Assembly: GCA_963717525.1 (NCBI GenBank)
Contig: OY970343.1
Coordinates: 1,472,001 to 1,536,000, forward strand
Direction of reading: 5' to 3'
Length of the DNA stretch: 64,000 bases
Source: an uncultured Methanoregulaceae archaeon
GTDB taxonomy: Archaea; Halobacteriota; Methanomicrobia; Methanomicrobiales; Methanospirillaceae
Shown here piece by piece: positions 39,414 to 53,251 of the stretch; position 1 is the stretch's first letter, and the number at the start of each line of letters is the position of its first letter. The position numbers were made by a program, and so were the translations under genes. The notes under the pieces are model-generated. The model worked only from the letters and a program-made list of their open reading frames with translations. It made no database searches and had not been told where the DNA came from.

Positions 39414-41336
39414 ATGAATCAGACTACACGAACGGTCGCACTCATTCAGATGGAGATCGGGCCGGATCCGGACAGCAACCTCAAAACTGCGCTTGAGCGT
39501 GTTGAACATGCCGCACGGAACGGGGCACAGTTCATCTGCCTGCCCGAATTGTTCCGTACCCGGTACTTCCCGCAGCAGATAGGTGTAAACGCAGAGCCGT
39601 TTGCCGAGACTATTCCCGGTGAATCGACGCAGGCATTTGCCCGGCTCGCCCGTGACTATGCGGCGGTTATCATTGTCCCTGTCTTTGAACGGTCTCCTTC
39701 TGGACAGTTCTTCAATGCAGCAGTCGTGATCGATGCAGATGGCAGTCTCCATGCTTCCTACCATAAGGTACACATCCCCCAAGATCCGAAATTTTTTGAA
39801 AAAGGGTATTTTTATCCCGGAGATCACTATGCCGTGCATACTACCCGGTATGGGAGGATTGCCGTTCTCATCTGCTACGACCAGTGGTTCCCCGAGGCGG
39901 CACGGTGCGTTGCCCTTGACGGGGCGGAGATCATATTCTACCCAACGGCAATCGGGAATCCCTGCACGGATCCACCATCAGAGGGGGACTGGCAGGAAGC
40001 ATGGGAGCTGATCCAGCGCAGCCACGCCATCGCAAACAGCGTGCATATCGCAGCCGTCAACCGGGCAGGCCGGGAAGGAGATATCCAGTTTTTCGGGGGA
40101 TCCTTTGTCTGCGACGCGTTCGGGAAACTGCTCGCCCATGCCGGCGATACCGGGGAGACGATCACTGCCACGATCGATCTTGGGATAAACGACACGATCC
40201 GGGATTCGTGGGGATTTTTCAGGAACCGCCGCCCGGACACCTACGGTACCGTTTGTGCCCGTGTGCCCGGATACGATGCGACGGCACCGATTCCCGGGAA
40301 AGGGGATACACCGAGGAAACTGGGTTTTTTCATGCCTGCCGAGTGGGAGCAGCACGATGCGGTCTGGTTATCGTGGCCACACAACAAAAACACCTTCCCG
40401 AACCTCCCTCCTGTCGAGGATACCTACGTCAGGTTCATTGCCGGGATAGTCCCCTCAGAACGGGTTGAACTGTTCGTTCCCACGCCAGTGATAAACCGGA
40501 TGGTAAAAGCGCGCCTGAAAAGCGCCGGTATCGAACTGTCCCGGATCACGATCCGGACCATCCCCTACTCCGACGTATGGATCCGCGATTATGGTCCGAC
40601 GTTCGTGGTAAACCCGGCCCTGAAAAGATCGGCAATGGTACGCTGGGAGTTCAATGCGTGGGGCGAAAAATACGAGGACCAGATCGCTGACGGACATGTC
40701 CCCGCTGACATGAACCGGTGGCTTGACCTGCCCGTCTTCAGGCCACAAATTATTCTCGAAGGCGGGTCAATCGACACCAACGGCAGGGGTACGGTGCTGA
40801 CCACACGCTCCTGCCTTCTCAACCAGAACCGGAACCCGAATCTCACGAAGGACGAGATCGAGGAGTACCTCAGGGAATACCTCGGGGCAATAAAAATTAT
40901 CTGGCTCAACCAGGGCATCGCGGGCGATGATACCGATGGTCATATCGATGATATCGCGAGGTTTGTTGCGCCATCCACCGTTGTCTGTGCCTGTGAGGAA
41001 AATCCTGCCGATGAAAATTACGCGGCTCTCAGAGAAAATTTTGAGATCCTGAATTGTGCAACCGACCAGGAGGAAAAACCATTCACGGTGATAAAACTCC
41101 CTATGCCGGCTCCCGTTGTCATCGGTGATGAACGGTGCCCGGCAAGTTACACGAACTTCTATATCGGGAACACCGTGGTAATCGTTCCGGTCTTTGATGA
41201 CCCCCATGACGGGGAGGCCATCCGCATCATCCAGGAACTCTTCCCGGAACGGACGGTTGTTGGAATAAACGCCCGTGCGATGGTAGAAGGATCCGGGACG
41301 TTCCATTGCGCAACCCAGCAGCAGCCCCGGCCGTGA
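39414..41336 (+). CDS. Fused N-carbamoylputrescine amidase (nitrilase fold) and agmatine deiminase
   Basis: LPEL / YHKVHIP / ICYDQWFPE triad; then MPAEWE, WIRDYGP, EGGS, DTDGHID and FHCATQQQP. Confidence 0.92.
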   Translation: MNQTTRTVALIQMEIGPDPDSNLKTALERVEHAARNGAQFICLPELFRTRYFPQQIGVNAEPFAETIPGESTQAFARLARDYAAVIIVPVFERSPSGQFFNAAVVIDADGSLHASYHKVHIPQDPKFFEKGYFYPGDHYAVHTTRYGRIAVLICYDQWFPEAARCVALDGAEIIFYPTAIGNPCTDPPSEGDWQEAWELIQRSHAIANSVHIAAVNRAGREGDIQFFGGSFVCDAFGKLLAHAGDTGETITATIDLGINDTIRDSWGFFRNRRPDTYGTVCARVPGYDATAPIPGKGDTPRKLGFFMPAEWEQHDAVWLSWPHNKNTFPNLPPVEDTYVRFIAGIVPSERVELFVPTPVINRMVKARLKSAGIELSRITIRTIPYSDVWIRDYGPTFVVNPALKRSAMVRWEFNAWGEKYEDQIADGHVPADMNRWLDLPVFRPQIILEGGSIDTNGRGTVLTTRSCLLNQNRNPNLTKDEIEEYLREYLGAIKIIWLNQGIAGDDTDGHIDDIARFVAPSTVVCACEENPADENYAALRENFEILNCATDQEEKPFTVIKLPMPAPVVIGDERCPASYTNFYIGNTVVIVPVFDDPHDGEAIRIIQELFPERTVVGINARAMVEGSGTFHCATQQQPRP

Positions 41337-44643: not shown

Positions 44644-45613
44644 CTATCCTTTTTTACCCAGAACCCGGATGATCGCATCGCCGAACTCCCGGGTCCCGGC
44701 CGATCCCCCGATGTCCCGGGTCCGGATACCGGACGAAAGAACCGTGGTGATGGCAGCCTCTAACCGGGCAGAACCTTCATTGTCCCCAAGGTAGGCGAGG
44801 AGCATCGCTGCGCTCCGCAGGGCTGCAACGGGATTTGCACTGTTTTTCCCGGCAATATCCGGGGCGCTGCCGTGGACCGGCTCAAACAAGGCATACCGGT
44901 CCCCGATATTTGCGCTCGGCACAAGACCCAAGCCCCCGACAAGGTAGGAGGAGACATCAGAGAGGATATCGCCAAAGATGTTCGTGGTCACGATCACATC
45001 GTATGCCCCGGGATGCTGGAGGATATCGAGACTGAGGGCGTCGATGAACTTGTCATTGTACAGTTACTCCGGCCTTTTTTGCCTCCTCAATACAGATATC
45101 CCGGAAGAAAACGTCGGATTTGAGCACATTTGCCTTGTGCCCGATGGTGAGTTTTCCCTGCCGCTGACGGGCACACCGGATCGCCGCCCGCGCAATTCGT
45201 TCGGTTCCTTTCCGGGTCACCACCCGGAGCGTGGTCGCACGATCAGGACCAATCTCCTCGATTCCTGAGTACAGCCCTTCGGTATTCTCCCTGACGATCA
45301 TCAGGTCAAAGCCGTCACCCCGGACCGGTCGCAGGTTTGCGAACAGGTCAAGCGCTTTCCTGATCCTCAGGACAATACTCTGGTAATCTTTCATCGGCGG
45401 AGTCGTGACCGCCCCGAAGAGGACGGCATCCGCCGTTTTGAGTTCGGAGATGTCGCCATCTGCACAGGGGCATCCGGTCTGCTCCCAGCGCCCGTACCCG
45501 ACCTCGACCGGGAAATATTCGTACTCGGGATGGAGCAGTTCGAGAGCCTGCTGCGCAACCGGGATCACCTCGTGGCCGATCCCGTCGCCTTCGACAATGG
45601 CGATCCGCGTCAT
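44644..45613 (-). CDS. aksF: Homoisocitrate / isopropylmalate dehydrogenase family (frameshift near 45060)
   Basis: GDGIGHEV, RENTEGLY, HKANV, NIFGDILSD, EPVHGSAPDIAG; operon context favours aksF over leuB. Confidence 0.8.
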
Positions 45614-46410
45614 TGTGCCCTCCACCGGCTGACCAGTTCCTGCACCGAACGTGCGATCTTTGCGGGACTTGCGCCCCAGTGGACGATCGCCCCGAATTTC
45701 CCCTTCCAGGTACCTAGTCCTTCCCGTTCAGACCGGCAACACCGGGCGATAAACGGTTCTTCTGCGACCTGCTCGAGGGGACAGATGTTTTCGAGCACAA
45801 AATCCGTCCCGTAGCACTCCGTGCAGAACTGTTTTGCCGTAAGACAGCCGGCTACCCGTTCGCCACCCTGCAGGGGATCGGCATCCAGTGTCCGTGTATA
45901 CCCGGCGGCCCGGCAGGGATAGACATCGGCAGGCACCGTTGTTATATCCCGGATATGGTGATCGAATACCACCGAGAGCTCCCCGAAGAGGCCGATCGCC
46001 TCCATCTCTTTCAAAGCCGCCGACAGGGTCGGCCGGGGCGGGAGAACATCGTAGACATGTACGGTGAGGAATCCCGAAAGATCGGGATCGAGCACAAACG
46101 TCATGTTCTCCTCAAGACCCGTGAAAACAGTACACCGGCACCCACTTTCTATCGCGAGACGCACCAGCCGGGCCCGGTCGTTGAGCTGCACTTTCTCCGG
46201 GTAATGACAGGCTTCCTCTGGTGTCGCCAGTATCCTCGACGAAATGATCTCCCGCATGACGTGATTTTTTGCCGGATCAAGGGAAACTTCGAGAAGTTCG
46301 CACCCCCGGTCTGTCTCCTTCAGGAGATACCGGCTCAGGGTATAGACCCGGTCGCCGCAGGGTCTGGCGGAGGCGACCCCGACAACCTTGCAGTGTTCAG
46401 GAAAGATCAC
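45610..46410 (-). CDS. Conserved hypothetical Cys-rich protein inside the aks operon
   Basis: GTGA/ATGA overlaps with both neighbours; YPC, GC, ICP, RCC and VHWG motifs. Confidence 0.8.
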   Translation of the reverse strand: MIFPEHCKVVGVASARPCGDRVYTLSRYLLKETDRGCELLEVSLDPAKNHVMREIISSRILATPEEACHYPEKVQLNDRARLVRLAIESGCRCTVFTGLEENMTFVLDPDLSGFLTVHVYDVLPPRPTLSAALKEMEAIGLFGELSVVFDHHIRDITTVPADVYPCRAAGYTRTLDADPLQGGERVAGCLTAKQFCTECYGTDFVLENICPLEQVAEEPFIARCCRSEREGLGTWKGKFGAIVHWGASPAKIARSVQELVSRWRAQ

Positions 46411-46877
46411 CGGTGAGCCCTCCAGTACTCGACAAGGCCGCCGGCGTAAAGGATCTCCTGCATACGGGGAGACAATGGGTGGATTGTATGCCGTTTCCCA
46501 CCAGTGTCTACCCAGCCACCCGACAGGTCGAATATAACCGGGCTTCCTTCTTCGCAGGCCAAGTCCGACTCGATGAGGGGGAGCCCGATATTGATCGCAT
46601 TCCGGAAGAAAATCCGTGCAAAAGACGGGGCGATGACAGCGACAACCCCGGCTTCCCGGAGGGCTAGGGCAGCCTGCTCCCTCGAAGAGCCGCACCCGAA
46701 ATTTTTACCGGCGACAATCACGGCCCCTTTGAGCCGGGGGGCAAGCGCGGGGTCGAGATCCTCCAATACGTGGGTTGTCCAGATGCTCCGGTCCTTGGTC
46801 CGCAGGTACCGGCCGGCGATGATGAGATCGGTATCAATATCCGCCGGGAGACACACGGCGGTTCCTCTGCCCTGCAT
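46407..46877 (-). CDS. aksE: Homoaconitase small subunit (LeuD/HacB family)
   Basis: DIDTD, GRYLRT loop, NFGCGSSREQA, FARIFFRNAIN. Confidence 0.85.
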   Translation of the reverse strand: MQGRGTAVCLPADIDTDLIIAGRYLRTKDRSIWTTHVLEDLDPALAPRLKGAVIVAGKNFGCGSSREQAALALREAGVVAVIAPSFARIFFRNAINIGLPLIESDLACEEGSPVIFDLSGGWVDTGGKRHTIHPLSPRMQEILYAGGLVEYWRAHR

Positions 46878-48088
46878 TATCCTGCCTCCGGCGAAGCGAT
46901 CTCCCCTTCAAGGGCGCTTGCTGCAGCTGTAGCGACAGAGCCAAGATAGATCTCCCCGCCGACACCCATACGGTTCCTGAAATTCCGGTTGGCAGTCGAG
47001 AGGCAGACCTCGCCTTCCCCGAGCACACCCATATGGTACCCGAGGCAGGGGCCGCACCCGGGCGTCCCGATGCTGCACCCGCCTCCAACGATATCGGCGA
47101 GCACCCCCGTGCGGATCGCCTTTTCGAGAACCAAGGCAGACGCCGGGACGACGATGGTCCGTACGGCCACCTTCCTGCCCCTGACCATCCGGGCGAACCG
47201 GGCGAGATCAGAATACCTGCCGTTCGTGCAGGTACCAACAAAGACCTGGTCAAGCGGCAGGCCTGCAAGGGTATCCACGGGCTTGACCGTGTCCACCCGG
47301 TGGGGGATAGCAACCAGCGGCACGATGTCGGCAAGATCCAGATCGAGTTCCTGACGGTACGAACACGGTGAGGCCTCCTGAGAGGAGACCTCATGCCCGT
47401 GCTCCTTCAGGTATCTGACGGTCACATCATCTGCATAAAAGAGCCCGGCCTTTGCCCCGGCTTCGACGGAAAGATTCGAGAGGACGAGGCGTTCGTCCAT
47501 GGAGAGGTGGCGCACTCCGTCCCCCACAAACTCGAGTGCCTGGTAGGTCGCCCCGTCCATGCCGAGTTTAGCCACGTAGGCAAGCGCGAGGTCCTTTGCT
47601 TCCGCCGCCCCCGTAAACCTCCCGGCCAGGTGGATACCCAACGATTCGGGGACACGGAACCAGGTCTCCCCGGTCAGCCAGATCGCTGCCATATCGGTTG
47701 CACCCACACCGGTAGCAAACGCCCCGAACGCCCCCAGCGTGACGCTGTGCGAGTCTGCCCCGACTACTATCTCACCGGGCAGGACTACCCCCTCCCCCAT
47801 CAGCTGGTGGCAGATCCCGCAACCGACATCGGAGAACTGCATGAAGGAGCTTCTCGCAAAATCCCTCAGCTCGTGCTGGAGGGTTGCCGTTGTGCCGTTG
47901 TTGGCCGGGGCGATATGATCAAACTGGATATAATACCCGGTCTCTTCTCCCAGCCGGTCTCCTCCCATCTCTTTCCAGGCTTCCAGAGCAAGGACGCCGG
48001 TCCCATCGTGGGCATATGCCCTGTCAACCTTCCGGTCGACGTATTCCCCTGCGGTTGCGCCAAGGATACGTTCGGAGAGCGTGCTCAT
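46877..48088 (-). CDS. aksD: Homoaconitase large subunit (LeuC/HacA family)
   Basis: GICHQ, GADSH, GTCTNG, GCGPCLG, STANRNF. Confidence 0.85.
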   Translation of the reverse strand: MSTLSERILGATAGEYVDRKVDRAYAHDGTGVLALEAWKEMGGDRLGEETGYYIQFDHIAPANNGTTATLQHELRDFARSSFMQFSDVGCGICHQLMGEGVVLPGEIVVGADSHSVTLGAFGAFATGVGATDMAAIWLTGETWFRVPESLGIHLAGRFTGAAEAKDLALAYVAKLGMDGATYQALEFVGDGVRHLSMDERLVLSNLSVEAGAKAGLFYADDVTVRYLKEHGHEVSSQEASPCSYRQELDLDLADIVPLVAIPHRVDTVKPVDTLAGLPLDQVFVGTCTNGRYSDLARFARMVRGRKVAVRTIVVPASALVLEKAIRTGVLADIVGGGCSIGTPGCGPCLGYHMGVLGEGEVCLSTANRNFRNRMGVGGEIYLGSVATAAASALEGEIASPEAG

Positions 48089-49216
48089 GCCGGGGTCTCC
48101 CGTTGCGCCCGCCGGATCAGTTTCCGGAGTATCTCGGGGGTGATGCTGCATTTCTGTTCGGAATGTTCCTTGACAAGGTCGAGGACGCGGCAGATCTGGG
48201 CCCCGGAGAGATCCTCGCCCAGTGACGCGATTACGTGCTCAAGCGCCTTTCTCCCGGTGTGCTTCCCAAGGATGAAGTGACGCTCACTGCCCACCAGGTC
48301 CGGGGGGAAGTACCTGGTACGTGGCAGGGTCTTCGAGGATTGCGGCGATGTGGATGCCACTCTCGTGCGAAAAGGCGAGTTCCCCTGTGACCGGCTTGTT
48401 CTTCGGGAGCGCTATACCTGAATACTTTTCCACCTTCCGGGAGAGGGCGAAGAGGTGCGAGAGGTCATACCGGTCGATGCCGCCCTTGGTTCGCAGGATG
48501 ACCAGTACCTCTTCAAGCGAGGCATTACCCGAACGTTCGCCAATACCGTTAACGGTCGTGTGCAGCTGGAAGGCCCCGGCCTGTGCCGCTGTGATCGTGT
48601 TTGCGACAGCGCAGCCCATATCGTTGTGGCAGTGGGCGCAGAACGGCCGGTCGACAGAAGAGACAAGATCGGTCATGATCGTGCGCATCTCGTCCGGGAT
48701 CAGGCATCCCACCGTATCGGCAAAACTGAGCAGAACAGCCCCGTGGTCGGCTGCCCTCCGGTATACTTCCTTGAGAAACACAAGGTCTGTCCGTGACGCG
48801 TCCTCTGCTGCAAACCGCACGGCAACCCCGTGGTCCCGGGCAAAATCAATCATCACAAGGGCATCCTCGAGCACCTTCTCCCGGGGTTTCTTGAACTTGA
48901 CCCGGACGTGGAGATCTGAGGTCGGGATAAAGATGGAGACCATGTCGACATCGCAGTCGATTGCTGTGGTGATATCCTCTTTTTTTGCCCGGGCAAAACC
49001 GCATATCCGGGCATCAAGCCCAAGGTTTGCGATGGTTTTTACACACTGTTTCTCGTTTTCAGAGACTGCCGGGAACCCGGCCTCGATTACTTCGACGCCG
49101 ACACAATCCAGTGTCCGGGCGATATCCACCTTCTCTTCGCAGGAGAATGACACGCCGGGTGTCTGTTCCCCGTCTCTCAGCGTTACATCACAGATCTCAA
49201 TATTCCACGGTTTCAT
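48085..49216 (-). CDS. aksA: Homocitrate synthase family (frameshift near 48315)
   Basis: DVTLRDGEQ, HCHND, GIGERSGN, HESGIH, ILGKHTG; no LeuA regulatory domain. Confidence 0.85.
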
Positions 49217-50468
49217 GGTGTGCTCCCTTGGGGCATTCCGCCTCCACGACAATGGTCTTCGGTGCATCCGGGATATGGATCACCTCGTGGAGGCGGCGTT
49301 CATCATTCGCATGACAGAGGACCGGGTCGGCCCAGCGGATGTAAGGGACCGGATCGCTCACCTTCTGACCACCGGTCATCGCGGCGCAGTGATTCTTCAT
49401 CACGATGCACAGGAGCGGGAGTCCCTTCTCATACACATCGATAAGGGCATTCAGGCCCGAGTGGAGCAGTGCGTAGTCGCCGATCAACGCCACGTGTGTG
49501 CTTCGTGCAGCGACCGCGATACTTGACCCCATACCATAGCTGGCAACACCCAGTCCATAGGGGGGTTTCAGCCCGAATACCGAGCAACCCGCGTCGCAGA
49601 TCAGGTGCATGTCCCGTCCTTTGAGGATATCCAGCAGGGGCCGGTACGGGCAGTCTAAACAGAACGTCCGGCCAAATCCCCGGTCTTTTTGTGATTCCGG
49701 CCGCCCCTGCGGTCCCGGTGGCAGGATAGCCCGGTGATCCCGGACAAAGGACCGGCCGTACTCCTTCACCTCATGGAACGGTGCAGCACGGGCCGGTACC
49801 GGGTTCACGGTCACGACCCGGGAGTCCCCCGGCGCCGGACCGGCGCCCAGGGTATCCCCCTTCCACCGGTTCAGGGGCGATGCGTCCGACCATGCAAACA
49901 TCGTCCTAGAGATCTCTGCAGCAGCAGTGACCCTGCCATGCATGGTCCAGCTCCGGTCGGCGAGTCTTCCCATACCCTCATTCCGGAGAGCCGGGATTAC
50001 CGTGACCTCAGCGTCCAGCAGCTGCGGCGTGAGCCGGAGCATAGCAACCCGGGAGAAGGTCTCCGATGCAGTCAGCGCTGCTTCAACCCCGGCAAAACAT
50101 GTGGTCTCGTCAGGTTCGATCACGGGAATCTCCGCCAGTTCCCCGTAATACCGGGAGTCCTGTGCCGTCTGGGAGCCTTTAGATTCGGGATCGTCACCGA
50201 CGACAAGAAGTACTCCACCCCGGATACCCTGCACCGTGGCCTGGACAAGCGGGTCGGCGCAGGCGTTCACGCCAACGTTTTTTATAATGACGGCAGCTCG
50301 TCTGCCGGCGAGAGAATCGCCCAGTGCATATTCGAGGGCGGTCTTTTCGTTTATGACAAACTCTGCCCGGGTTAATGTGCCAAGTTCCGTCACCGGGAAA
50401 CCCGGGACGGTATACTGCCGGTCCGTTCCGGCAGAGATCGCTGCAGCCAGCGCCCCGACTCCCTTCAT
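49197..50468 (-). CDS. Compact ThDP-dependent enzyme, IorA-like, with no beta subunit nearby
   Basis: PGFPVTE, NEKTALE, KNVGVN, SQTAQD, FCxxCPY, DAGC, and GDYALLHSG...N ThDP motif. Confidence 0.82.
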   Translation of the reverse strand: MKGVGALAAAISAGTDRQYTVPGFPVTELGTLTRAEFVINEKTALEYALGDSLAGRRAAVIIKNVGVNACADPLVQATVQGIRGGVLLVVGDDPESKGSQTAQDSRYYGELAEIPVIEPDETTCFAGVEAALTASETFSRVAMLRLTPQLLDAEVTVIPALRNEGMGRLADRSWTMHGRVTAAAEISRTMFAWSDASPLNRWKGDTLGAGPAPGDSRVVTVNPVPARAAPFHEVKEYGRSFVRDHRAILPPGPQGRPESQKDRGFGRTFCLDCPYRPLLDILKGRDMHLICDAGCSVFGLKPPYGLGVASYGMGSSIAVAARSTHVALIGDYALLHSGLNALIDVYEKGLPLLCIVMKNHCAAMTGGQKVSDPVPYIRWADPVLCHANDERRLHEVIHIPDAPKTIVVEAECPKGAHHETVEY

Positions 50469-51433
50469 TCATCCCTCCCGGGCACAAGATCGCAGCCTGC
50501 ACAGGTCGTGCACATGGTAAGAGCACCGGCGGTATCCAGTCCGGCACGGGCAAGGGCCTGGCGGTGTATGGCAAAGAGTTTCCTGAGCCTCCCGGCAGAT
50601 GGCCGGGGTCTCCCGGCACATCCCGCCACCGGGTTGAGCGGCCGGAGCACCGGGATCACCCCACGCGACGTGAGCCGGTTGATGCAGGCCTCCATCTCTG
50701 CATCAGTCTCTCCAAGCCCTACGATAACATTGGAAAATACCCGGCCCTTACCGAAGAGTTCCACGGACCGGTCGAGAACCCGCCACAGGCAGTCGTAGTC
50801 AAGACCCGGGCACATCTCTGCAAAGAGCTCCGGGGTGGCCGCCTCGATATTGAATTTAACCTCTGTCACACCGAGGGCATGGAGCTTATCCGGGGTCTGG
50901 TCGGTCGGGTAGATTGACACACCAATGGGCAGGCCAAAGAACTTCAGGTGACCGATGACCTCACAGACATAGGACTCCTCCTCCCCGATGCTCTCCAGGA
51001 CACCGCTCGTGAGCGATATAGCGCCGACCCGGTGCCGGACCGATTCGACGAGATCCATGATCTCCTTTACGGTTTTACGTTTACCGGCAAGCCGGGGGAC
51101 AGAGCAGTAGCGGCAGGAGAAGATGCAGCCCTCCGTAACGGTAATAAAAGCCTGGTCCGGGCAGTGAAGCCCCGGCTGGAGGAGCCGGCCCGAAATCTGC
51201 CGGTCCTCAAAAAAGAGATCGGCAACCCCGCCCCCCCGGTGGGCGATCTCAACAGGGGACGCCGGGTTGATCGCAAGCTTGACCCGGTGGCTGCCCATGG
51301 CAAAAAAGACCGAGCCTTTTCCACCAGCGCCCGGGCCTGCCGTGGATTTTGCAAGGTAATCCTCTGCTGGTTCGCCGCTGAGCCGGGCAGAGCCGGCCTC
51401 GAGCAGCCGGGCCTTCAGTTCTTCCCACTGCAT
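50465..51433 (-). CDS. Radical SAM protein, biotin-synthase-related
   Basis: CIFSCRYC; NIE, VIVGLGET; C-terminal CTTCAGCD. Confidence 0.88.
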   Translation of the reverse strand: MQWEELKARLLEAGSARLSGEPAEDYLAKSTAGPGAGGKGSVFFAMGSHRVKLAINPASPVEIAHRGGGVADLFFEDRQISGRLLQPGLHCPDQAFITVTEGCIFSCRYCSVPRLAGKRKTVKEIMDLVESVRHRVGAISLTSGVLESIGEEESYVCEVIGHLKFFGLPIGVSIYPTDQTPDKLHALGVTEVKFNIEAATPELFAEMCPGLDYDCLWRVLDRSVELFGKGRVFSNVIVGLGETDAEMEACINRLTSRGVIPVLRPLNPVAGCAGRPRPSAGRLRKLFAIHRQALARAGLDTAGALTMCTTCAGCDLVPGRDE

Positions 51434-52311
51434 AGTTCCAGCGCCTCCTCGTACCGGATGAAGAACGGCAGGGCAGCCACCGCCCCGGTGATCCCCCGCC
51501 CGTTCATCACAATGCGGAGATGGGGATCTTTGAGAGTCTGCACACGATCCGGAGTCACTTCCCCGCGTTTTACGTCCTTTGCGTAATCCATGAGCTCGTC
51601 TGACAAGGAAAAACCGGTATAGACAGCCATGCCGGTCTTCTCTGAAAGGGTATATTTTTTGAGCAACTCGCAAAACCGCCTAACAAGTTGTTCCGGTACT
51701 GTCGTGGCAAATTCAGCGACAAGACTCACGCAGTTCTTGGTCCGGTACGCCACCGGGAAGAGCTGGACAATCGTATGCGAGAGATAGACAGATTGTTCAT
51801 CCTCAACCGCCCTTGCGATATTGTGGACAAGTGTCCACGTCGCTCCCTCTTCTGCCGTGTCGGTATCATCCACCCCAATCAGAATCCGCTGCCGCCGGGG
51901 CAGCCAGAGCGTGGCACCTGCCACTTTCCCCCCGCCGGAAGGATCACACTGTTCCCGCAGCACACCCCGTGCGGCAGCACGGCAGGAGGTTGCACCCACG
52001 CCACCGCCACCCATACCGATGTAGGTCACCGCAATCTCATTCCTGCTTACCGAGACCCCGGAGATTCCTGCGGGGAACCGGGATCCTTCGAGCGCAAGAT
52101 CGACGGCACCGGGACGGAGCAGGTACCGGGATGTCGATCCCACGCACCTGACACTCTTCACCAGAGGGCTCTGTGCATAATGATGCTGGGTCCACATTGC
52201 GCCCCCGATACAATCGAAGAATTCGATCAGCTCGACCTGGCTCGCGGTCTCATCCGCCACCGCAACGATCCGGGGATACCGGATCACGTACGGATCAGAG
52301 ATGCTCGCCAT
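51415..52311 (-). CDS. Methanogenesis marker protein 11-like (TiaS-related DDTD domain), copy A
   Basis: GMGGGGVGA, IGVDDTDT..GATW, RTKNC, GRGITGAVAA. Confidence 0.75.
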   Translation of the reverse strand: MASISDPYVIRYPRIVAVADETASQVELIEFFDCIGGAMWTQHHYAQSPLVKSVRCVGSTSRYLLRPGAVDLALEGSRFPAGISGVSVSRNEIAVTYIGMGGGGVGATSCRAAARGVLREQCDPSGGGKVAGATLWLPRRQRILIGVDDTDTAEEGATWTLVHNIARAVEDEQSVYLSHTIVQLFPVAYRTKNCVSLVAEFATTVPEQLVRRFCELLKKYTLSEKTGMAVYTGFSLSDELMDYAKDVKRGEVTPDRVQTLKDPHLRIVMNGRGITGAVAALPFFIRYEEALELCSGKN

Positions 52312-53251
52312 ACAGCCCCGCCGCCTCGATTCCCCGGTCTGCCCACAGCACTGCACCGAGCGCTCCGATCCGCCCTTTCCTCCCATTATGGTCGAGATAC
52401 TCGATGCCGAGCCGCTCTGCCTCTTCCTGTGCATTTTCAACGGTAAGGATCTCCGTCTTGATGGCTTTCATGAACGGGGACTCCTGCCCGGTCCCGATAC
52501 CCCGCGAGAATGCGATGCCGGTATCCTTCGAGAAGGTATGATCTTCCACGAACGTGCAGACGAACTCACGAAGTGCACTGATGCTTTCTGGCCGGGCGGC
52601 AAAGGTGAGGGCGGAACCGACACAGTTTGTCGTTTTGCTGGGGACCGCCGGGTTGAGCTGGACAAGCCGCATGGTGAGGAACTCAACGCCTTCGATATGG
52701 CAGGCCTCCGCACATTTTAAGGCCATCACCCATGTGGCACCCTCCTGCCTTGTATCCGTATCATCGATCCCAAACGAGATCTTCTCGTACCTGGGGGATA
52801 CGATCCGGACGTGGTTGGTCCGTGCACCCCCTACCTTAAGGTCTTCTTCTGCCGGGTATTCCGCCCGGATAACCCCCGGCGCCTGAGGGAGGCATGCAGC
52901 AATACCAACACCAGCGCCAGCGATACCTGCCCATGTGGTGATCACCTCATCACCCTTCACTTCCACCGCTTCCAGTGCCTGGCCGCCGATAGTCCCCGCG
53001 GCTGCCCCGAAATTGACCGGGTGGTGGCCGAGGCGTGCCTGCATGGTCATCGAGATCCCTTCCACGGCACACGCTGCCACTGCACCACCGGCGCGGGACC
53101 GGTTCATGGCATCCCACTCAATCGTTCCCCGGGCGTGACACTGCTCAAGGATCTCGGCACGCCCTGCCCTCTCGTCAACCATCACCAGAAATTTCTTTGA
53201 GAAGAGCGGGCCGAACCGCTGCTTCACGCCATCGGGTGTAAGTATGATCAT
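52295..53251 (-). CDS. Methanogenesis marker protein 11-like paralogue, copy B
   Basis: GIAGAGVG, FGIDDTDT..GATW, QLNP...KTTNC, GRIGALGA. Confidence 0.75.
   Translation of the reverse strand: MIILTPDGVKQRFGPLFSKKFLVMVDERAGRAEILEQCHARGTIEWDAMNRSRAGGAVAACAVEGISMTMQARLGHHPVNFGAAAGTIGGQALEAVEVKGDEVITTWAGIAGAGVGIAACLPQAPGVIRAEYPAEEDLKVGGARTNHVRIVSPRYEKISFGIDDTDTRQEGATWVMALKCAEACHIEGVEFLTMRLVQLNPAVPSKTTNCVGSALTFAARPESISALREFVCTFVEDHTFSKDTGIAFSRGIGTGQESPFMKAIKTEILTVENAQEEAERLGIEYLDHNGRKGRIGALGAVLWADRGIEAAGLYGEHL

Follow-up and report, generated by a model that had tools for sequence, protein, structure and literature searches.

A radical SAM protein with a predicted auxiliary iron-sulfur cluster in an archaeal coenzyme B gene cluster: a candidate for the sulfur step

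All methane formation and oxidation based on methyl-coenzyme M reductase (MCR) requires coenzyme B (CoB), and a 2025 publication still listed the late steps of CoB synthesis as unknown (PMC12068725). The published route to CoB passes through a semialdehyde (PMC3087415, section 14.5). Two described systems convert an aldehyde-level carbon to a thiol: the bacterial XcbE/XcbA route to coenzyme M (CoM), in which XcbA is a [2Fe-2S] thioaldehyde reductase (PMC9457059), and the archaeal COG1900 route (L-ASST, MMP16). Neither employs a radical S-adenosylmethionine (SAM) enzyme. Among radical SAM enzymes, LipS2 of Thermococcus kodakarensis inserts sulfur at the terminal carbon of the octanoyl chain by means of an auxiliary [4Fe-4S] cluster on C85, C276 and C279, and the clusters of LipS1 and LipS2 are site-differentiated (PMC9585515). 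A 4Fe-5S cluster has been proposed for type II BioB (PMC10813225). Here we analysed a stretch of 64,000 nucleotides (the window) from an uncultured Methanoregulaceae archaeon, positions 1,472,001 to 1,536,000 of contig OY970343.1 (assembly GCA_963717525.1), which encodes a radical SAM protein of an unnamed family within a set of CoB genes. We consider this protein a candidate, as yet unproven, for the enzyme of the CoB sulfur step.

The radical SAM protein and its relatives

The gene lies on the minus strand at 50465-51433 as one uninterrupted reading frame of 322 amino acids, and the host genome, which is 87% complete, holds a single copy of it. Judged from relatives, the host belongs to Methanoregula. 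Its product exceeded the cut-off for the radical SAM domain PF04055 (57.7 vs. 29.5 bits). It has the CxxxCxxC motif that would bind the SAM-cleaving cluster, C103-IFS-C107-RY-C110 (51104-51127, minus strand), and TMCTTCAGCD at residues 306-315 (T306-M-C308xxC311xxC314-D315; 50489-50518, minus strand) contains a second group of three cysteines. When the protein sequence was shuffled, CxxCxxC appeared within the last 40 residues in 123 of 100,000 trials. The motif is inside the final 45 residues in 64/64 genome copies of the family and is retained down to about 25% identity. Among 81 uncurated full-length representatives at 50% identity, C308, C311 and C314 are conserved in 78, 80 and 72 proteins, respectively. 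In the curated alignment A3 (n = 140), from which fragmentary or frameshift-like rows were removed, C103, C107, C110, C308, C311 and His90 (51164-51166, minus strand) are invariant and C314 is present in 132 rows. The C-terminal motif, which the first-pass annotation of this DNA had observed, is thus real and not a chance occurrence. It is not peculiar to this gene, and the sister type NitD/MSMEG_0568 carries it in 31/31 copies. C314 is replaced by Ser in 7/140 rows. A subclade with this replacement (P0208, P0221, P0232, P0234, P0238, P0243 and P0256), in which the Ser is usually followed by His, represents a natural ligand variant.

Because the three extra cysteines and His90 are conserved throughout the family, the protein likely binds an auxiliary Fe-S cluster, which agrees with the earlier proposal. 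His90 is a candidate fourth ligand or sulfide-binding residue. A set of three cysteines with a conserved His also recalls the site-differentiated clusters of LipS1/LipS2 and the 4Fe-5S cluster proposed for type II BioB. The AlphaFold2 (AF2) model of the protein has a pLDDT (predicted local distance difference test) score of 96 and points in the same direction. In human LIAS, Ser352 is a ligand of the auxiliary cluster (PMC12246082). Since the structural alignment with LIAS ends at residue 312 of the model and residue 358 of the chain, Ser352 would sit at about residue 306, beside C308, if the end of the alignment is ungapped.

The label "BioB-like" given in the first-pass annotation proved to be loose. 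The protein scored 21.1 bits with the bioB model TIGR00433 (cut-off 225), less than with variant_rSAM (70; cut-off 125), the LipS2 model NF053743 (65.5; cut-off 270) and the MSMEG_0568 model TIGR04043 (56.3; cut-off 303.7); the lipA score was 21 bits (cut-off 310). By these scores, no curated family claims the protein, and the family is unnamed ("biotin synthase-related" in JGI). BioB membership was rejected on its score and on the replaced ligand positions. In a weak pairwise alignment with Escherichia coli BioB (E 0.0014), the auxiliary ligands C97, C128 and C188 of that enzyme (PMC10813225) are matched by T142, G171 and F233 of our protein; position 233 is Cys in 48/140 relatives. BioB is also the nearest solved structure by sequence, at the same E value, and none is close. 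We rejected LipA membership, as the N-terminal Cx4Cx5C and the C-terminal RSSY are absent, and LipS2 and MSMEG_0568/NitD membership on the scores given above, the latter also because it forms a separate clade. An ESM Atlas search with the protein returned its own family only. Our literature search, which left most subscription journals outside its range, found no function assigned to this family or to the methanogenesis marker 11 protein discussed below.

Of the known relatives, the uncharacterised NitD/MSMEG_0568 type (TIGR04043; Nit1C cluster) is the nearest. The two types are homologous over their full length (hhalign probability 99.7, E 3.8e-27) and have in common an N-terminal GP, H90, C103/107/110 and C308/311/314 (31/31 archaeal NitD-type copies). 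The NitD type nevertheless forms a separate clade with a FastTree support of 100, and the barrel residues of the two types differ (E191/T, N195/H and R264/V, this type/NitD type). The tree was rooted at its midpoint and gave long-branch warnings; therefore we draw no direction of transfer from it. LipS2 also has C-terminal cysteine ligands to an auxiliary [4Fe-4S] cluster, and its sulfur insertion at a terminal carbon is the closest functional model. However, the match is confined to positions 22-224 of the 292 in NF053743, our protein has three C-terminal cysteines where LipS2 has one barrel Cys and a CxxC, and no GcvH or lipoate-ligase context is apparent around it. The fold belongs to the same group as BioB and LipA, with Z scores of 17.6-19.4 for LipA, MqnE, BioB, HydE and PylB and no clear winner. 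LipA gave the best Z score (19.4; root-mean-square deviation 3.3, 243 residues aligned), indicating a BATS/LipA-type fold. By analogy, type II BioB would offer a comparable three-Cys auxiliary site with an open iron, but the identity to BioB and LipA is 13-18% and our protein has residues other than Cys at the BioB ligand positions. Even if a link to CoB fails, the protein represents a radical SAM family that is widespread in archaea, has no dedicated model and carries an auxiliary-cluster motif that differs from those of BioB, LipA and LipS2.

Gene cluster and distribution

The gene belongs to an overlapping run in the order ftr, two marker-11 genes, the radical SAM gene, a short IorA-like thiamine diphosphate (ThDP) gene, aksA, aksD, aksE, a DUF7714 gene and aksF, of which those from the marker-11 genes to aksF are on the minus strand. 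The overlaps of the radical SAM gene with its neighbours are 19 nt on the upstream, marker-11 side and 4 nt on the downstream, ThDP side. The first-pass annotation had described these neighbours correctly. The adjacent upstream gene (51415-52317, with a start codon of our choice) encodes a methanogenesis marker 11 protein with a TiaS kinase-type domain (PF22641), which matched TIGR03280 with 334 bits (cut-off 255.8). The next gene (52295-53251) encodes a second marker-11-like paralogue, which also matched PF22641 and scored 185 bits with TIGR03280, under the cut-off. A third, more distant marker-11-like gene (127 bits) is located outside the window (G000:C1:723795-724658). The ThDP protein (49197-50468; TIGR03336, 144 bits; PF02775) is a candidate 2-oxosuberate decarboxylase or oxidoreductase.

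Further downstream are an AksA-type homocitrate synthase gene (48097-49216), AksD, the homoaconitase large subunit (46877-48151; TIGR02086 and TIGR01343 over cut-off), AksE, the small subunit (46407-46877; best match NF040625 HacB2, 158 bits), a DUF7714/XcbA-like protein (45610-46410; PF24830, 287 bits) and AksF, homoisocitrate dehydrogenase (44644-45625). Since a separate leu gene set exists elsewhere in the genome, the set in the window is the Aks set by elimination. The DUF7714 protein is a candidate thioaldehyde reductase. XcbA is its sole characterised relative, and a distant one (48 bits with NF052538, under the cut-off of 150). The aksA and aksF genes are split by frameshifts near 48310 and 45100, respectively, when compared with the intact copies in locus L009, and mcrA just outside the window is likewise in two pieces. 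These splits are probably indel errors of the assembly rather than marks of pseudogenes.

This arrangement is well conserved near the host. Among the best-match loci of our phylum search, marker 11, ThDP and aksA genes flank the gene in 29/29 Methanomicrobiales loci. Among 80 near-relative loci, almost all from Methanoregulaceae, marker 11 is found in 79, ThDP in 79, aksA in 73 and ftr upstream in 74; each cluster gene is seen in 67-79 of these loci, many of which are short. The aks set and DUF7714 were present in 5/5 wider Methanomicrobiales loci. Outside the order, two loci of family f14 (L143 and L144) hold the whole cluster including the radical SAM gene, and DUF7714 adjoins aksE or aksF in 10/10 loci from outside Methanomicrobiales; marker 11 adjoins the ThDP gene in 3/4 marker-centred loci. 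In 33 loci that are outside the order or are second copies, the gene stands beside marker 11 in three, all from f14. A second clade of the family (L117, L118, L119, L120 and L113) supplies a further copy in certain Methanomicrobiales and Methanosarcina. At two of these loci the neighbours are genes for OAH sulfhydrylase and SepCysS, or for cysteine desulfurase, FdhD and ThiI.

We then compared the occurrence of these genes in 201 Halobacteriota genomes (E<1e-25 for this type and E<1e-35 for the NitD type; one further mcrA match, at E 2e-4, was considered spurious and excluded). This type was found in 99 genomes, the NitD type in 44, mcrA in 122 and DUF7714 in 89. Each of the 122 mcrA-positive genomes has at least one of the two, this type in 98 and the NitD type in 34. 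Among the 79 mcrA-negative genomes, this type was found in one (G073, an assembly of 310 contigs) and the NitD type in 10. The 89 genomes with DUF7714 coincide exactly with those that have this type but lack the NitD type, so that DUF7714 and the NitD type never co-occur in the sample. Because the sampled genomes are related, these counts overstate independence. Where marker 11 (over cut-off) and the NitD type are both present, they are adjacent in 13/14 genomes, and the NitD type thus occupies in 13 genomes the same place beside marker 11 that this type has in the window. Taken together, the locus context, the phyletic pattern and the position of DUF7714 beside aksE or aksF argue for a role related to sulfur and for a connection with the CoB cluster.

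Possible roles in CoB synthesis and beyond

We tentatively favour the idea that, in Methanomicrobiales and Methanosarcinales-type archaea, a radical SAM enzyme with two clusters forms the C7-S bond on an aldehyde-level CoB intermediate and passes the resulting thioaldehyde equivalent on to DUF7714. In this scheme, C103, C107 and C110 would hold the SAM-cleaving [4Fe-4S] cluster, and C308, C311 and C314 would hold a second, site-differentiated [4Fe-4S] cluster above the active site, where His90 could assist in retaining a sulfide for transfer at the free iron, in line with proposals for type II BioB and LipS1/LipS2. AksADEF would supply 2-oxosuberate, and the ThDP enzyme would remove C1 to leave C7 at the aldehyde level. 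The radical SAM enzyme would then make the C7-S bond on this intermediate (or on an alcohol or a cysteine adduct) to give the thioaldehyde equivalent, which DUF7714 would reduce to the thiol in the manner of XcbA in bacterial CoM synthesis; an XcbA-like gene is indeed part of the cluster. Marker 11 may provide ATP-dependent activation of an oxygen, or the threonine ligation and phosphorylation steps. The scheme accounts for the grouping of the genes, the matching occurrence of DUF7714 and the set of ligands. It does not explain the need for a radical, which makes the formation of the C7-S bond by the radical SAM enzyme its weakest step, nor the apparent dispensability of the family in class I methanogens.

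Several observations weigh against this proposal. The published route, which runs through an aldehyde, needs no C-H activation. In Methanosarcina acetivorans, a double deletion of MMP16 and L-ASST was unobtainable even with CoM and methionine; the authors read this as a role of COG1900 in CoB synthesis, and COG1900 sulfurtransferases are the published candidates (PMC12068725). The fold is tied with that of enzymes that do not insert sulfur (MqnE, Z 18.8, with HydE and PylB close behind). Among the 33 loci outside the order or from second copies, the gene is within an aks cluster in just two, and one f14 genome retains the cluster without the radical SAM gene (L268). In the CoB maker Methanocaldococcus jannaschii, a control that is positive for marker 11, we found no match to DUF7714 and none at 1e-9 to TIGR04043 or NF045502, which are models of sister families only. 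ANME-1-like genomes (f15) have mcrA in 23/23, DUF7714 in none and marker 11 in one, and these organisms may use a different late CoB route. The marker 11/NitD-type pair was found in eight genomes in which no mcrA was found (G044, G052, G059, G065, G173, G194 (f8), G190 and G053). Distant homologues carry names from Thermoplasmata, Methanomassiliicoccales and Jordarchaeia (Asgard). A Thermoplasmata-type clade was examined in 80 metagenome loci obtained with 22 seed proteins, eight of which are so named (seven Thermoplasmata-type and one "Euryarchaeota"). Here the gene follows cysS in 75 loci, cysE in 45 and cysK in 39; marker 11, ThDP and aksDEF genes were seen in 0/80, an AksA-like synthase gene is near in 27/80 and DUF7714 in 8/80. 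A broad presence in organisms that lack CoB, together with another known substrate, had been named at the outset as a finding that would speak against a CoB role; its occurrence in Thermoplasmata and Jordarchaeia would agree with the first part if these hosts lack MCR and CoB, and our searches found no other known substrate for it.

The scattered sulfur neighbours are better accounted for by a general sulfur-supply or maturation enzyme for archaeal thiols (CoM, homocysteine and CoB), which would make or reload a donor or cofactor for aldehyde-to-thiol enzymes such as those of COG1900, with the aks cluster as one client. We consider this role somewhat doubtful, yet nearly as likely as the C7-S proposal. 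The operon with cysK, cysE and cysS in the Thermoplasmata-type clade fits it, as do the sulfur genes found within about 3.3 kb in 11/25 loci outside the cluster, a count that also weakens the CoB assignment and comes from 98 of 174 open reading frames (ORFs) with no background control. These genes encode OAH sulfhydrylase, SepCysS, cysteine desulfurase, FdhD, ThiI, JAMM, LarE, rhodanese and sulfite-reductase-like proteins. In 16/21 f15 loci the NitD type comes after the L-ASST (HcyBio) gene; it precedes cysteate synthase and comDE genes in the mcrA-negative genome G059 and abuts tfuA-ycaO in G083. A published supplement table lists L-ASST but no MMP16 for Methanoregula, and another route to CoM must therefore serve there. 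However, a large part of these neighbours was seen with the sister NitD type or with second copies, whereas the primary copy is associated with aks, marker 11 and DUF7714 genes, and the putative orthologue MA0436 shifts by about 0.6 log2 in two comparisons of MMP16 mutants, under the cut-off of 1 (PMC12068725). An enzyme that inserts no sulfur appears unlikely. Its C-terminal cysteines would hold Zn or a cluster with a structural or electron-transfer function, and it would perform HydE/PylB/MqnE-type chemistry on another metabolite derived from Aks or cysteine. Foldseek ranks HydE first and VIA ties MqnE with LipA, C314 is Ser in the seven rows mentioned above, the Nit1C setting in bacteria is that of a nitrilase cluster (PMC1199592), and the frequent upstream ftr makes a methanofuran link possible. 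Because active-site residues 191, 195 and 264 differ between this type and the NitD type, the two may also have different substrates. On the other hand, sulfur-gene neighbours recur in three separate clades, and the three cysteines with the invariant His recall the sulfur-inserting LipS enzymes and type II BioB.

The version put forward in the first-pass annotation, a LipS2- or BioB-type abstraction of hydrogen from the terminal methyl group of a heptanoyl chain with sulfur supplied by the auxiliary cluster, is in our view improbable. It can draw on the reaction of LipS2, on the place of LipS2 among the three best family matches (66 bits) and on LipA heading the fold list. But the Aks pathway yields a diacid, C7 would already be oxidised in the semialdehyde of the published route, we see neither a source of heptanoyl nor a carrier of the lipoyl type (GcvH was not found in the 87% complete genome), COG1900 proteins are competing candidates, and DUF7714 would be left without a job. 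Of that earlier interpretation, a role related to sulfur and the link to the CoB cluster are supported, and the BioB/LipA-type mechanism at heptanoyl C7 is weakly supported. Older labelling work by White reportedly points in the same direction as the semialdehyde route. 2-Oxosuberate is also a pimelate precursor. The database label would suit another kind of biotin or lipoate synthase, for which the ThDP enzyme would turn 2-oxosuberate into pimeloyl-CoA; we regard this as very improbable and have largely rejected it. The bioD gene was not found in the 87% complete genome nor in the M. acetivorans control, GcvH was not found in that genome nor in either methanogen control, and the BioB ligand positions are occupied by T142, G171 and F233.

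The proposal of C7-S bond formation can be widened, with still less confidence, to the view that this family, DUF7714 and marker 11 constitute a radical route to the CoB thiol in class II methanogens, in which a new architecture of the auxiliary cluster, built from the C-terminal CxxCxxC and the His, makes the thioaldehyde and the XcbA-like protein reduces it. The NitD type would be a non-orthologous stand-in in ANME-1, alkane oxidisers and Archaeoglobi. If true, this would also give the first clue to the function of the bacterial Nit1C radical SAM enzyme.

Probable orthologues and other genes

Judged from synteny, MA0436 and MA1224 are probable orthologues in M. acetivorans. A published supplement places MA0436, a radical SAM gene, just before the aldolase gene MA0439 and the dUTPase-like gene MA0440. 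The same layout is found in our loci L111 and L114, and for this reason we take MA0436 as a probable orthologue. According to the same kind of source, MA1224 follows aksE (MA1223). The outcome is a conserved candidate, present in single copy, together with its likely partner; M. acetivorans, the host of the probable orthologues, is genetically tractable.

Some further arrangements were observed for the NitD type. In f15, e.g. at L136:2495-5067, there is an overlap between the NitD-type gene and that for L-ASST (HcyBio). One f8 genome with mcrA (L273:7889-9756) has the marker 11/NitD-type pair abutting tfuA-ycaO, the McrA thioglycine genes. The cysteate synthase and comDE genes of G059 come after its marker 11/NitD-type pair, and a published table lists cysteate synthase/comDE-type CoM genes and no mcrA for Geoglobus. 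Elsewhere in the window, on the plus strand at 39414-41336, a 640-amino-acid ORF encodes what we take, from its motifs, to be a carbon-nitrogen hydrolase fused to an agmatine deiminase.

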